This document shows, piece by piece, positions 45,001 to 51,000 of a stretch of DNA of 64,000 nt. The position numbers are program-made. Every line of letters begins with the position of its first letter. The stretch's first letter is position 1. Where the stretch lies: NCBI RefSeq assembly GCF_001677475.2, contig NZ_CP015229.1. The stretch is one strand, 5' to 3'. The stretch comes from Escherichia coli. GTDB lineage: Bacteria > Pseudomonadota > Gammaproteobacteria > Enterobacterales > Enterobacteriaceae.

Positions 45001-48000
45001 TTTGCGTTTCATTCCATTTAAAAATCAGAACACCGTGTGGCCACAACACACGAAAGGCTTCTTTAAATCCCTGCCGCAAATCATCACGCCAGGTATCTTT
45101 ATTCAGCCGTCCATATTTCTTTCCCATCCAGGCGTTATCACCAACACGCTCAAGATGCGGAGGGTCGAATACAACAACCGGAAACGATGCGTCTGCAAAT
45201 GGTAATGCACGAAAATCTGCTATCAGGTCAGGGCTAATTATCAGGCGTCGTCCATCACATAATGTGTGCTCTTCTTTTCTGATATCGCTAAATATCGCCC
45301 GGTCGTCATTCTTATCGAACCAGAACATACGGCTGCCACAGCACATATCAAGAATGGTTGCAGGTGTACTCACAGCATCACCTCCTGAAATTTCCCCTGA
45401 TAAAACGCCAACACGCGCTGCATAACCTCACTCTTCCGGCACTCGCGACAGATTATGTTCAGACGCCTGTCGTAACGACGTATTTCTCCGTCTGGTAATG
45501 AATAAACCAGGTCCGGGTCGCTCTTTTTTTTCACTGCTGCTTTCGACATCTTTTTGCGGGCCTTTATCCAGTCCTTACGTGCCTGTTCAGACGGAAATAG
45601 CCCGTAGCCGGAGTTGTATAAATCGCCACTGGCAACCAGCTCTCTGGCAAGAACACTCATCAGATATCTTGTCGCACCTGTTTTCGCTTCCAGTTGCCGT
45701 AACGTCTCGCGCCCGCTCAGACGCACAAGTTCAACAACCTGTACCTTAATTTTTTCCCGCTCTTCTTGTGTAAATACTTTTGCCATAAGCGCCTCCGGCA
45801 ATCACTTTTCCGATGCAACACGGCGGGAAGAATCAGCAATCTGTCGAACAATATCCCGGTGCTTGTTCAGCTCCCGCAGCGCGGCGCAGACACGCTCCCA
45901 CTTCTGGACATGATTTTTCGCCCGACGCAGTTCGCGGTTTGCCATATGCAGCGATGGTAAAACCAGGTCATCCGCTCGCGTTTCAGTAAACGATGGCAAC
46001 GACTGCACAATGTCCGCCACAGTTTCTGTTTTAATATCTTCCTGTGTTGCAGCTTCCTGTACCGGTAACGCAACACCTGCTGGCTGAGGAAAGGCTTTAC
46101 CATCGGTTTCTGCTACCGATGCAGCTTTCGGCTCTGCTGGTAAATTATCTCCAGGCATGCAGTAGCGAAATTTACCGTTCTGATTTACGCGTGCCAGGCG
46201 TCCCGTTGCGGTTACCACCGCCAGCGTGGAAGCAACCTTGCGAGTGCTGACACCGAACTTACCCGCCAGTTCCTCACATGTTTTAGCCCCCTCCTGAGAG
46301 ATAAACTCAATCATCATGTCAGCGCTAACTTTTGGAGCGACCTCTTCGGTTACCACATCCGGCGCTTCAGGTTGTAGTGCCTGCCCTTCGGTTACCCCGG
46401 ATTCACCTTCGACAGCCAGAAACCAGGTGTGACCCGTTTTATCAACAACGCCATTTTTTTTGAGTTCCCACAGTTCGTTGAGAACTTCTTCACGGCTGAT
46501 ATCAAGCCGCGCCGCCAGTTCAACAGAATTGGCTTTTCCCATCGCTTTCAGTGCATGCAGTACGGTTTCCATCGAAAATTTACCTCGTCAAAAATTCTCA
46601 CATACCCTGACGCCCAACGTTTGATCGCCAGCTCTCCCAGTTAAAACTCACCCAACGACCACCGTTCATGGTCATACGGTCCATCACCCGCTCGCCGAGG
46701 AGTGTGCTCATCGCTGCGTGATTCAGGTTCGTCAGGATTCCGACAGTGCGCAGTGATGCCGTTCTGCGGTCGACGATCTGGTTCAGTATGACCTGCTCGT
46801 TGCGCGTATCCCGCTGCATGCCAATTTCATCCAGGACCAGAAGGTCGACCCCGCAAAGTTCCTGTAAAAATTTCTCACCGGACTTGCCGTTGTCATAGCC
46901 GTCATGCAACACGCTCATGACATCGGACACGGTGACGATAATCACGCTTCTCCCCTTCGCCATCAGCCGGTTGCCAATCGCTGCTGCCAGGTGATTTTTA
47001 CCGGTACCAGGTTTACCGCTGAACACGAAGTTTGTACACCCGGTCATCAATTCATCGGCAATGGATTTCGCCTGGCTCAGAGCATGGCGCTGACCGTCGT
47101 TCTGCACCCGGTAGTTCTCGAATGAGCACTTCCTGTGAAGCGGCTGGATGCCCGCACGGTTCAGGATTTTTTCAACCCGCGCCTGATGATTCTGGCGGTT
47201 AATTTCCTCGCTGCGCTTACGGCCCTCAGCCAGTTGCCATTCCCGCCATTCGTCGGTCGTCCGGAACGGTGCTGCCACGTGCGGTGGTGCCAGACGGCGC
47301 ACCCGTTCAAGAATCCCTCCTGTCGAAATGTTTTTCATGGCTGATTACCCCCTGAACCCCGGCGGAATTTCGGTGTCCGGTTCAGAAATGTGGTTCACGC
47401 AACGCTGGCTGACTGCGCCAGCCTTCGGCAGCGACCACGGATTTTCGAAATTCCTGTTCGGGCCAAAAAACGTCGATGCCTGCTGAACAAATTCAGTTCC
47501 CGCTTTCCCGGTAGCCTCCAGGTATCTTGCGTAACGCCTCACGCCATCCAGCACGACATCCGGTGACACCCCTTCGCGTAATCTGGCCCTCCAGGCATTG
47601 AACGCGGATTTCTTCGGGTTTGACCCTGCCCGATGCGGATATTCACGCCAGACCCGTTCGAACACGTCAGGATAATCAACTCGTCCCGCAGACGGTCCCG
47701 GCATCGCCCGGGTTAACCCAATCGGCTTCCCGCTCATCGCGGAATCGGCTTCAGGCTGCTGCGGTTGGTGTTGTTGCTCCGGTTCGACGAGCAGCACCTG
47801 CTGCACACAACGCCCGGAATCTGCTTCCGGTGTCATGCCAGCTGGTCCTGGACGTTCAGTCAGAACGGGACAAGAATCCACCAGTGGGTCCGTGGCGATT
47901 TTTTCGCCATGGACCAGAAGGGTTTTATCTCTTTCCTGTTCCTGTTCCTGTTCCTGTTCTTGGCTTGAAAGGGGCTCTGAAGGGGCTTCAATTTTCCGAC

Positions 48001-51000
48001 ATGATTCACGTCTGACATCCAGGTGGAAATCATCCTTATATCTATCATAAAAGGATGATAAAAAAGGATTTTCCAGCAACGCGGAATATTCATTTCTTAC
48101 CCCAGCACAACGGTTATCGCCTGGTTTCAGCGCTTCACCAACCTGCCATGCTGCCATTTCATGCACCCATACAACCTCAGAATCATGGTCATAGCTGCAA
48201 AAACCAGCCTCGCAAGCCATTTGAAGCCCCTTAGAAGCCCCTTCAGGATCAAGTCCGGTTTCGTGAGCAATGTACAAAACAGGCAGGTAATAAAGGCCCA
48301 GCATATTGGAATGAGGCGAGGTCATCATATACAACGCCACTACCATACATTCCGGACCAGACTTCCTTAGTTTTCGCCCTGTATCGCCTAACCAGAACTG
48401 AGGTGAAATTGTTGCGTAATTACGCATAGTCCCCTCGCATACAAGATTTACTCCATACCGCAGACGGTCCCGGTATCTCCCGGGTTAACCCAATCGGCTT
48501 CAGGCTGCTGCGGTTGGTGTGACTGCACATTGGTGTGACTGCACATCTTCACAGACGGTCCCGGTATCTCCGGGTTAACCCAATCGGCTTCAGGCTGCTG
48601 CGGTTGGTGTTGTTGCTGGCGAAATTCTTCCAGATGTGGCAGAATTATTACCGTGTATTGCTCCATGCCCTGCCTGAATATCAGATATTCATCAGGATTT
48701 GCTCAGAACGTCCGGCCCCAACCGGACGTTTTTTATTTGCATGAACGTTAATGGCATGCTGGAAAGCCCGGCTGATCGGACTGATATCAGATGCCATCTG
48801 GAACGCGCATAAAATCGCCGCGATGTATCGCCAGTCGGTACGACTGACCTTCGATTCATGGCAGCCAATCATCTTCGCCAGTCCCCTTTGCGTCAGAGCT
48901 GACAGGTTGATAAGTAAATCCGTTTCAGCGCGATCGATATCGCGCTGCGACAGTTTGCTGTAACTTGTTTGTGACATTTCTTATGATTCCAAATAGTGAA
49001 TAGTTAGTTGAAAGGTATGCGTGGAAACGCATATGGCCTTAATTGGTCAGATATCTTGGGCCTCGCTTTTCAGCGACGTAGGACGAATGTCCATTGTGAA
49101 AAGAGCAGTGTTAATTGAGCTTATCGTTGACGATCAGGATTCGCTACATTGCGTAACCATTCGGCGGTAAATTTGCCATCAGATGCATTGGCGAGAATTT
49201 CCGAATAGTTGGTTTTCATCGTGTATTCGGTGCGAGGTAACGCTCCGTTTTTAACCCACTTATGAATTGCAACATTTGACAACCCGCATAAACGGGCAGC
49301 GACTGTTTGACCACCAACAGCTTTTACTGCGAATTGTATCGGATTCATACTGCTATCCATTAATTTAGTTAACTTCGAGTTAATGTTAACTATTAGCTGA
49401 CAGTTATGTCAACTATGTTTGATAATTAACGTATGGTTAAAAAAGATGAACTAAAAGAAGCGTTCTCAAAGAGACTACTACAGGCATTATTAGATGCAGG
49501 TGTGGGCGGACGCGGTCAGGCTAAGCGGATTCAGAATGCAATGAAACTGCGAGGCATTGATATCTCTGAACCGGGGATCTGGAAATGGCTTAATTCTGCA
49601 TCAATTCCAGAAAAAACAAGTATTTTGGCACTTAGTGACTGGCTTTCCGTGAGGCCGGAGTGGTTGGAGTATGGCAGTAACGAGCCATCCGTAAAACAGC
49701 GACCTTCAATTCCAAACGAATCAGAATGGGGTTCCCTTGAAACTTGGGACAGAAATACACCACTACGAGATGATGAAGTTGAGGTGCCATATCTGAAAGA
49801 CATTGAGTTTGCATGCGGTGACGGAAGAGTTCATTGCGAAGATCATAATGGTTTTAAATTACGCTTCTCAAAAGCAACCCTGCGCCGTGTCGGAGCTAAC
49901 AGTGATGGTTCTGGTGTGCTTTGTTTTCCGGCTACTGGTGATAGCATGGAGCCCGTGATACCAGATGGAACAACAATCGCAGTAGACACAAACAACAAAC
50001 GTATTGTTGACGGCAAACTCTACGCCATCGCACAGCCTGGTGTCGGTGATGAAAAACTGAAGCGTATAAAACTATTGTACAGACGCCCCGGTGGAAAACT
50101 AATCATACGCAGTTATAACAGTGAAGAGTACCCTGACGAAGAAGCAGATACTCAAAGCGTGGAGATTATCGGAAAAGTTTTCTGGTATTCAGTTCTGCTT
50201 TAGCCCCTCTCCCCCCGGCCTCAGAGCCGGGTTTTTTATTAACCCAGCTAGCCAAAACTCATCTATCCTAGCTTCTATACCCCTTCATACTTGATAACCG
50301 TCGCTCACCGAACAAGCAATAATAATTAACTAAAAATCAAAAACATAGAATTTCCCCACAATAATTTTAACTTTTGGTTATTGACTAATGCTAACCAACA
50401 GTTAATAATCATTTCACCAACAGGTCACCGATAACAACGCGGCCCCAATTGGAAAGCTCTTTAAACAACGTCGAACACTCGACTACGTGGCTGCAAAGCC
50501 AGATCGCCCAACCGCATAAGCTGTCGGGTGCAATGCCGAAGCAATCATCTCAGGGGAGGCTTCGAGATTGCATCGCCAAAGTTTATTCGGGAGAAATCTA
50601 TGTCCAGAAAAACAGAATTTAAAGGCACCGCAGCTTCCCGCCGCAGAGCACGCAGGGCCGAGCTTCAGGGTCTGGAGGCATCAAGCGCTGATAAACTGCA
50701 CCGCCCCACACCTTCACGGGTGTACTTACAGTGCAAACGCAAAGCCGCAATGCGAGCTGAAGTAGTCACGATAACGACATTAACCAGAAAATATGAAGGC
50801 TCTACTTGTCTTCCAAACACTGCACTTTACGCAGCTGGCTATCGCAAATCAGGAACAATAACAGCGAGGTGATTGATGACCACGCCTTCAGTTTTGCCGC
50901 AAAAATTATGGCGTCCGCTTGCAGAGATTAAAAACTTCGTTGAAAAAATGCCTGATGGTGTTCGCCTTACGGAGGTTACAAAAAAAGTTAAGACGTTTGC

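Follow-up and report, generated by a model that had tools for sequence, protein, structure and literature searches.

The window analysed here is a stretch of 64,000 nucleotides from Escherichia coli (contig NZ_CP015229.1), in which a short repeat array lies between cII and the replication initiator gene that occupies the O position. The spacing from cII to the initiator gene is 253 nt, most of which is the array. cII, the open reading frame (ORF) across the array and the initiator gene are all on the minus strand. The features of the locus are as follows.

47345..48427, minus strand: O-position replication initiator, 360 aa
47689..47771, minus strand: internal (source) copy of the repeat, in the disordered linker of the initiator, with 23 extra nt relative to the upstream units
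47933..47959, minus strand: (GAACAG)n simple repeat, encoding (EQ)n
47968..47992, unstranded: iteron cluster 2, two sites inverted relative to cluster 1, encoding EAPSEPL
48010..48100, unstranded: AT-rich dip between the iteron clusters, G+C 0.30-0.33, with a 9-bp inverted repeat ATCATCCTT...AAGGATGAT
48221..48244, unstranded: iteron cluster 1, two GAAGGGGCTTC-type sites with an 11-bp period, encoding EGASKGL
48448..48666, minus strand: 72-aa ORF (phrog_2751; annotation 'hypothetical protein'), probably spurious
48461..48520, minus strand: upstream unit A, the last before O, its end 33 nt from the O start codon
48514..48546, minus strand: junction between the units, a perfect 16-nt tandem repeat (x2) of TTGGTGTGACTGCACA (TGTGCAGTCACACCAA on the coding strand)
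48552..48610, minus strand: upstream unit B, the first in the direction of transcription, without the 23-nt piece and one further G
48638..48738, plus strand: putative oop-like antisense RNA unit, with an inferred promoter assignment

An earlier note on this DNA had called the initiator gene O, which is right by position; the protein itself belongs to a different initiator family from lambda O (phrog_1701) and has no Pfam match, including none to Phage_rep_O. Its N-domain (aa 1-155) is followed by a low-complexity linker and by a C-domain whose tail, SEPDTEIPPGFRG, is DnaT-like. A Foldseek search of the N-domain model against the PDB returned only weak winged-helix matches (E of at least 0.03) from which no family can be assigned, and these are enough to call the modelled domain winged-helix-like. 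A literature search on this replication module found nothing.

In lambda, the origin is formed by four O-binding repeats of about 19 bp beside an AT-rich region, inside the O gene (see also PMC7466680). The true origin repeats of the present phage are likewise intragenic and dictate part of the initiator peptide, although this initiator is not a homologue of lambda O. Judged from its sequence, the pair of GAAGGGGCTTC iteron clusters around the AT-rich region is likely to be the origin of this initiator family, with the AT-rich dip as a candidate unwinding region. The iterons are conserved or co-vary in seven relatives from Klebsiella, Acinetobacter and metagenomic sources (among them L008, L010, L011, L056, L058 and L059), and in an Acinetobacter relative another cluster of true iterons, its third, lies a short way upstream of the initiator gene. 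Scored with an iteron matrix, the true sites reach 13.5-18.4 bits and take ranks 1-4 in the 64-kb window. A motif defined post hoc, GAAGCCSNTT, has all seven of its matches in the window within this locus.

The earlier note had described a unit of about 60 nt repeated in tandem upstream of the gene. Two head-to-tail copies are indeed present on the minus strand, at 48461-48520 and 48552-48610, but they do not abut, being spaced 90-91 nt apart. Unit B is shorter than unit A by 1 nt (CCGGAG in B vs CCGGGAG in A). A repeat finder places two 41-nt copies with 100% identity to each other at 48480-48520 and 48570-48610, with members of the same family inside O at 47708-47748 (68%) and 47731-47771 (78%), and 30-nt copies at 47689-47718, 48461-48490 and 48552-48581 with 87-93% identity. 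The variant third copy that had been reported within O was located at 47689-47771, 23 nt longer than the upstream units, and the idea of a partial duplication of O-gene DNA upstream of O is borne out by the 92% identity over 49 nt between internal and upstream copies (47686-47734 and 48458-48506). The units are G+C-rich (0.55-0.63) and 59-83 nt long, with a period of 90 or 113 nt; among isolates, the 16-mer is present 0, 2 or 4 times, or more in an 88-aa variant of the ORF.

The 23 nt that set the internal copy apart are flanked by GAAGCCGATT 10-mers at 47720-47729 and 47743-47752, such that the common 90-nt unit aligns to the internal copy with a 23-nt gap between two 10-bp direct repeats. 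A homologue of the internal copy that includes the 23/24-nt segment is found in Tritos/Evi-type initiators, whose cII-O gap is 71 nt and holds no array, which indicates that the internal copy is the ancestral one; the upstream units are copies of this segment. The internal copy goes together with the C-terminal module, and it is also found behind a different DNA-binding domain with different iterons. The relatives that share the N-domain of the present initiator (L008, L010, L011, L056, L058 and L059) have no upstream copy of their own linkers.

The array is limited to one near-identical clade of E. coli/Shigella prophages. The N-domain occurs in 80 of 5426 E. coli genomes, where all 77 intact examples have the array at 92% identity or more and the array-less form of this exact module is absent among intact carriers. 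Selection would fit this retention of at least one unit, but descent from a recent common ancestor accounts for it just as well. No true match to the unit was present among 100,044 species representatives; a single 19-mer match has unrelated flanks and is about what chance would yield. A dispersed mobile element of the MITE or REP type was considered and rejected, as carrying genomes have a median of 3 places, all at this locus. The copy-number comparison proposed in the earlier note gave 1, 2 or 3 units: among IMG/VR and fetched loci, five have one unit, most have two, and L006 has three of 113 nt (2.7 copies at a 113-nt period with 98% matches in TRF), while TOE17 has three units of 90 nt and the array is 90 nt shorter in some E. 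coli genomes. Outside the array, L006 is 95-100% identical to the window throughout, and in general the number of units (1-3) and of 16-mers varies among prophages that are 95-100% identical elsewhere.

The copies have also exchanged sequence with one another. In L006, internal and upstream copies alike have an identical A->T change as well as the 23-nt segment; five loci with the L006-type internal allele retain the common upstream units; and alleles of a CCCGGG(A/C)GAT(A/G)CC patch are common to upstream and internal positions. Because the two positions have such alleles in common in L006 and L042, the pattern points to gene conversion between the copies. In L005 and two sister genomes, the upstream flank is joined directly to the internal copy and the gene is annotated 'missing N-terminus'. 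Natural recombination between an upstream unit and the internal copy has here deleted the origin together with the DNA-binding N-domain.

Variable-number tandem repeats and segmental duplications form and change in size by slipped mispairing or unequal crossing-over. The present array resembles them in its near-identical head-to-tail units, its recognisable source copy, its copy-number polymorphism, the 10-bp microhomology at the gap, and the concerted evolution and inter-copy recombination of its units, including inter-repeat deletion. The array is thus probably a lineage-specific segmental duplication or recombination scar, recombinogenic, which is now a small variable-number tandem repeat in the gap between cII and the initiator gene. 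A piece of about 100 bp encoding the disordered linker of the initiator would have been duplicated into this gap in one lambdoid replication module and would there have become the tandem repeat. The array would have no sequence-specific role in initiation, the ORF across it would be a by-product, and its persistence would reflect the youth of the clade together with tolerance of the array within the part of the pR transcript that separates cII from the initiator gene. The place of the array, right next to a cII/oop-like module that was retained, suggests a joint left by the replacement of a lambda-type O with this replication module. What differs from ordinary repeats of this kind is the source, part of an essential gene 770 nt away, so that the origin and the initiator's DNA-binding domain lie between the repeats. 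The main biological consequence would then be instability: since the direct repeats enclose an origin cassette composed of the N-domain, the iterons and the AT-rich region, homologous recombination could resize the array, convert its copies or excise the cassette, and excision would leave a replication-dead prophage.

An alternative, possible but unlikely, is that the array belongs to the pR operon as a cis-acting element, RNA or DNA, and adjusts initiator expression or the interplay of pR and pO. It might form a structured leader, contain a translated leader ORF with coupling to the start of the initiator, or provide a variable spacer that sets the distance from a convergent oop-like promoter to the initiator gene and origin. 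The position of the array invites such a reading, as pR transcription passes through it on the way from cII to the strong Shine-Dalgarno sequence of the initiator (GAGGGG), and at least one unit is kept by all intact carriers. It is also directly upstream of the putative oop-like promoter, an extended -10 element (TGgCAGAAT) at 48638-48646 where the lambda pO -10 aligns, and the stretch 48611-48680 aligns weakly, in a way that is only suggestive, to the lambda cII-O junction. As at lambda oop (PMC3985674), the antisense strand has an intrinsic terminator within the 3' end of cII (48705-48732) and a -10-like element at the aligned position; however, lambda has only 32 nt between cII and O, with pO overlapping the start of O, compared with 253 nt here. 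The activity of pO in lambda modulates pR read-through and replication (PMC3985674).

The common lineage has a 90-nt period, divisible by 3, and an ORF that is open through all units. In most variants the end of this ORF is either 20 nt short of the initiator ATG or overlaps with it, so that a translated leader across the array is conceivable; yet in L006, with its 113-nt period, the ORF is broken early and the initiator gene is still intact. A Y-shaped hairpin can be folded from each unit (-18 to -26 kcal/mol), but only unit A stands out (z = -2.8), with single-unit values of -2.8, -0.8, +0.3 and -0.35, and the whole leader from cII to the initiator gene folds no better than shuffled sequence (z = -0.5). 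The plus strand reaches z = -3.25 over a stretch that includes the terminator. Given the mixed unit scores and the value for the leader, a structured RNA in the array is not convincing. A scan for promoters and terminators placed no site within the array, only pR/pRM-like sites near 49400 and the oop-like terminator; Rfam returned no match in 46000-51000 at E<=1; and no LexA-, CRP-, DnaA- or IHF-type site could be fitted by eye. Relatives with the same initiator N-domain, moreover, manage without an array.

It is improbable that the ORF across the array encodes a real small protein, for example a mimic of the initiator linker that modulates initiator partners or turnover. The 72-aa frame, with QPQQPEADWVNP twice, is present as the earlier note had it. 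In its favour, the related phages all have it annotated, as do RefSeq genomes, and it has a PHROG family of its own, begins with an ATG preceded by AGG 6-9 nt upstream, and shares the frame of the initiator through QQHQPQQPEAD. Against this, its length among isolates is 41, 42, 46, 51, 58, 62, 72, 76, 88 or 102 aa, with three frames used past the first unit, and in L006 it ends at a TAG within unit 1. Its unique 20 codons hold 0 synonymous and 5 non-synonymous variants, compared with 22:11 in cII (Fisher p=0.009, on small numbers); the ratio for the DnaC-like gene is 97:54. Since length and frame shift with copy number and the unique part shows only non-synonymous variants, the earlier suspicion that the ORF is spurious is probably correct. 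The protein is of low complexity, neither it nor its family matches Pfam or NCBIfam, and a search of 5.8 billion proteins found no homologue outside the clade. That search and tblastn also found no larger protein holding the unique N-terminal part, and the ORF as a recognisable remnant of another gene is thus without support.

There is also a slim chance that the array is a selected, copy-number-variable control element. The direct repeats around the origin cassette would then be a built-in means of exchanging it or of turning a prophage replication-dead, or else the units would set initiator dosage as weak decoy sites, looping sites or a variable leader. If so, strains would differ in phage replication according to their number of units, and this would extend to Stx phages and the prophages of E. 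coli O104:H4.

Very improbably, the units are auxiliary initiator-binding sites that titrate the initiator or loop out the origin together with the internal copy. Plasmid control loci such as P1 incA and F incC, associated with handcuffing, have iterons on both flanks of the rep gene portion nearest the origin, and the present repeats similarly flank the origin-bearing portion of the initiator gene. Each unit contains AATCGGCTTC, which matches the iteron core AAGGGGCTTC at 8/10 positions, and the cluster upstream of the Acinetobacter initiator gene consists of true iterons. The mismatches, however, fall in the invariant GGGG core, and the unit motif scores 3.6 bits, at a rank of about 327 in the window, which is background level. 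Compared with P1 incA and F incC, the unit size, phase and conservation of the array do not fit: helical phase is not constant at a period of 90 or 113 nt, the number of copies is free to vary, and all other family members lack the array. GAAGCCGATT occurs four times in Evi/Tritos linkers despite their different DNA-binding domain and iterons (GTCACG). Nor do the units resemble iterons in general, which are short, regularly spaced repeats (about 11-22 bp) beside an AT-rich region and are conserved or co-vary with the DNA-binding domain. The 60-nt units have 3-5 times iteron length and lie outside the AT-rich region, with the dip 400 nt away, and they show no such conservation across relatives. 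The earlier proposal of iteron-like binding sites is thus not supported by the background-level score, the G+C-richness of the units and their absence upstream in relatives outside the clade, and the comparison with the ori layout of related phages places the iterons within the gene and the array upstream only in the one near-identical clade.

Lastly, an assembly artefact, which the earlier note had named as the possible refutation and for which only the general hazard of repeats in short-read assemblies speaks, can be dismissed because the identical layout recurs in independent sequences (6 phage records, 77 complete E. coli genomes and about 33 IMG/VR contigs).

With the array read as a duplication scar, its significance is mostly practical. 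The 'hypothetical protein' phrog_2751 of POCJ13-like Stx phages and many E. coli prophages is probably a repeat artefact, the array can serve as a hypervariable marker, and the direct repeats would explain the decay of the replication module into an origin-less remnant. A by-product of the analysis outweighs this finding, namely the likely location of the origin for a large family of initiators without any match in Pfam. The hexanucleotide run reported within the gene is a perfect 4.5-copy CTGTTC/TTCCTG array at 47933-47959 that encodes (EQ)4; an equivalent (EQ)n-type run follows iteron cluster 2 in distant relatives, and among isolates n is 3, 4, 5 or 7.

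The tandem array upstream of the initiator gene is a variable tandem duplication. Features of this kind are ordinary; the instance itself is undescribed. The surrounding DNA is the immunity-replication region of a lambdoid prophage whose early-right operon runs on the minus strand. Its gene layout is based on the ORF list and on the annotation of phages that are 98% identical (phiSTEC1589-Stx1c, Shigella phages POCJ13 and 75/02 Stx, and PhiR5_2):

49433-50203, plus strand, cI
49121-49360, minus strand, cro-like gene
48681-48977, minus strand, cII
48448-48666, minus strand, small ORF
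47345-48427, minus strand, initiator in the O position, 360 aa
46598-47338, minus strand, DnaC-like loader

The gap between cII and the initiator gene is 253 nt long. On the coding (minus) strand it consists of ~55 nt of unique sequence, unit B (48552-48610), a junction that holds a 16-mer (TGTGCAGTCACACCAA) in two perfect copies, unit A (48461-48520), and 33 nt before the initiator ATG that include the Shine-Dalgarno sequence GAGGGG. The unit sequence is CACCAACCGCAGCAGCCTGAAGCCGATTGGGTTAACCCGG(G)AGATACCGGGACCGTCTG. A third copy, in the linker of the initiator (47689-47771), differs from the upstream units by a 23-nt insertion between two GAAGCCGATT 10-mers and by a few substitutions. The repeats that the earlier note had reported upstream of O, with a variant copy inside O, are real, and an assembly artefact is excluded. 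Its proposal of a partial duplication is also borne out, with a copy of the linker present in the gap. The array is probably a segmental duplication of linker DNA particular to this lineage, its size altered by unequal exchange and slippage and its sequence homogenised by conversion with the source copy.

A search of IMG/VR with a 19-mer from the unit returned ~33 viral contigs. In nearly all of them two upstream copies are spaced 90 nt apart, and a single internal copy lies another 766-790 nt away. The N-domain of the initiator is present in 80 of 5,426 complete E. coli genomes. Even the most deviant array (strain 23CRST049) has flanks that are 95-100% identical to the window, and the carriers form a single young clade. 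In a species-wide search (one genome per species, 100,044 species), the sole match has unrelated flanks and is at chance level. The immunity genes adjoining the module vary between carriers, and the module has therefore moved among lambdoid phages, array included.

Across carriers, the number of units is one, two or three, and that of the 16-mer is zero, two, four or more. Most carriers have a unit period of 90 nt; in strain 23CRST049, whose units still contain the 23-nt segment, it is 113 nt. These 23 nt, absent from the common unit, are exactly the segment between the two GAAGCCGATT 10-mers, a pattern that would be expected of slipped mispairing. In 23CRST049, the internal copy and all three upstream units carry both the 23-nt segment and an A->T change (CCTGATGCC), yet this internal allele also occurs at five other loci that keep the common upstream units. 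Alleles are also common to upstream and internal positions in the patch CCCGGG(A/C)GAT(A/G)CC. Such sharing indicates gene conversion between the copies. Three wastewater isolates (E. coli SW071611, positions 1160-1653 of its locus; SW071619; SW07163) carry a natural deletion from an upstream unit to the internal copy, with the N-domain, the origin and everything between gone and a pseudogene annotated as "missing N-terminus" left behind. This deletion is the reciprocal outcome, left when an upstream unit recombined with the internal copy, and the isolates appear to hold a replication-dead prophage remnant. The demonstrable effect of the array is that it makes the origin cassette deletable.

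An alternative possibility is that the array acts modestly in cis, either on expression of the initiator or on convergent pR/pO transcription. It is suitably placed, at least one unit is kept by all intact carriers (77 of 77 complete E. coli genomes with an intact N-domain), and the common form of the small ORF stops beside the initiator start. However, folding of the leader is no better than that of shuffled sequence, the array matches no Rfam family and has no promoter or terminator signals, and 23CRST049 has an intact initiator gene although its period differs and its ORF is broken. A cis effect is conceivable, but none of the computed results calls for one, and segmental duplication is the preferred reading.

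The initiator is a modular protein with an N-domain, a low-complexity linker and a C-domain. Its identification as a lambda O homologue was rejected, as the protein has no match in Pfam and is placed in phrog_1701. The N-domain (aa 1-155) is common to Klebsiella and Acinetobacter phages and forms a family of 3,936 clusters at 50% identity, for which there is no Pfam or NCBIfam model. Its AlphaFold model is confident (pLDDT 87.8) and only weakly resembles winged-helix DNA-binding domains (Foldseek, best E = 0.03). The C-domain (aa ~245-360) is common to phiP27, SfV, ST64B and others, and its last 13 residues, SEPDTEIPPGFRG (47345-47385, minus strand), match the C-terminal end of E. coli DnaT (PDB 6aep, 2ru8, 9zbt), a hint that the phage protein, like DnaT, engages the helicase-loading machinery of the host. 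Within the linker, ~50 nt (47700-47760) are read in different frames in the window and in the initiators of phages Tritos and Evi (GKPIGLTRAMPGPSAGR vs READRVVPENTGQPVGR) because of paired 1-nt indels. The linker is under weak constraint as protein, and a piece of it copied elsewhere would carry no obvious protein information. The hexanucleotide run noticed earlier is real, a (GAACAG)n tract (47933-47959) encoding (EQ)4. Among isolates n is 3, 4, 5 or 7, and distant relatives have an equivalent acidic simple repeat 3' of the second iteron cluster, (DKDT)n in Tritos/Evi-type initiators. This run seems to mark the boundary where N-domain/origin modules get swapped.

The most useful product of the analysis is incidental, namely the probable layout of the origin in a large family of initiators without a Pfam match. 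Inside the initiator gene lie:

48221-48244, iteron cluster 1, 11-bp-period repeat, GAAGGGGCTTCTAAGGGGCTTC on the coding strand
48010-48100, AT-rich dip, G+C 0.30, the only one in the region, containing a 9-bp inverted repeat
47968-47992, iteron cluster 2, 11-bp-period repeat, inverted relative to cluster 1

The two GAAGGGGCTTC clusters around the dip are probably the replication origin of this family. The arrangement was found in every relative examined that shares the N-domain, including Klebsiella phage ST846-OXA48phi9.2, three metagenomic or genomic relatives at 68-73% identity, and Acinetobacter phage A3926.3, which has a third cluster in non-coding DNA directly upstream of the gene. In Klebsiella phage ST13-OXA48phi12.4 (40% identical), the repeat has become AAAGGGTTYCG in both clusters, so that the repeats are either conserved or co-varying across the family. 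At the protein level, the family consensus shows the clusters as EGASKGL and EAPSKPL(R)SQ(EQ)n. Relatives differ in the orientation of cluster 2, direct or inverted, and it is therefore at the DNA level that the iteron sequence is kept.

The suggestion that the upstream units are iteron-like sites did not hold, and initiator binding or handcuffing there is unlikely. With a matrix of 15 family sites that includes the window's own, so that ranks are partly circular, the window's four sites ranked 1-4 among 128,000 positions (13.5-18.4 bits), whereas the best motif in the upstream unit, CAATCGGCTTC, scored 3.6 bits (rank ~327). Tritos/Evi-type initiators, moreover, carry a homologue of the unit in their linker behind a different N-domain with GTCACG-type iterons; the unit is therefore part of the C-terminal module and is not tied to the DNA-binding domain. 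The cII-O gap of these phages is 71 nt and holds no array. Two "phage replisome organizer" initiators (comparison locus L007, 1779-1817 and 2039-2077; phage Evi, 1458-1496 and 1718-1766) have two GTCACG/CGTGAC clusters inside the gene, with a 10-bp period and ~260 nt apart, a layout analogous to that of the GAAGGGGCTTC clusters.

The small ORF (phrog_2751) is annotated everywhere, but a real small protein is unlikely, since its length and frame vary and all five variant sites in its unique part (first 20 codons, 39 sequences) are non-synonymous, against synonymous to non-synonymous ratios of 22:11 for cII (Fisher p = 0.009) and 97:54 for the DnaC-like gene (p = 0.007). A search of 5.8 billion proteins found only ten clusters, all from E. 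coli and 42-102 aa long. Versions of the ORF use several frames 3' of the first unit, and that of 23CRST049 meets a TAG stop in unit 1. The ORF is probably spurious, as the earlier note had supposed. Its unique part overlaps a probable oop-like unit:

48705-48732, plus strand, strong intrinsic terminator with an 11-bp stem, inside the cII 3' end
48638-48738, plus strand, putative oop-like antisense unit, extended -10-like TGgCAGAAT plus the intrinsic terminator

This unit matches no Rfam family. Homology to lambda-type phages ends at the cII stop codon; a weak alignment past it puts TGgCAGAAT (48638-48646) at the -10 position of lambda pO, which lies 2 bp from the O start (PMC3985674). TGgCAGAAT may belong to the promoter of the oop-like unit, and if so, the conservation of 48611-48680 needs no protein.
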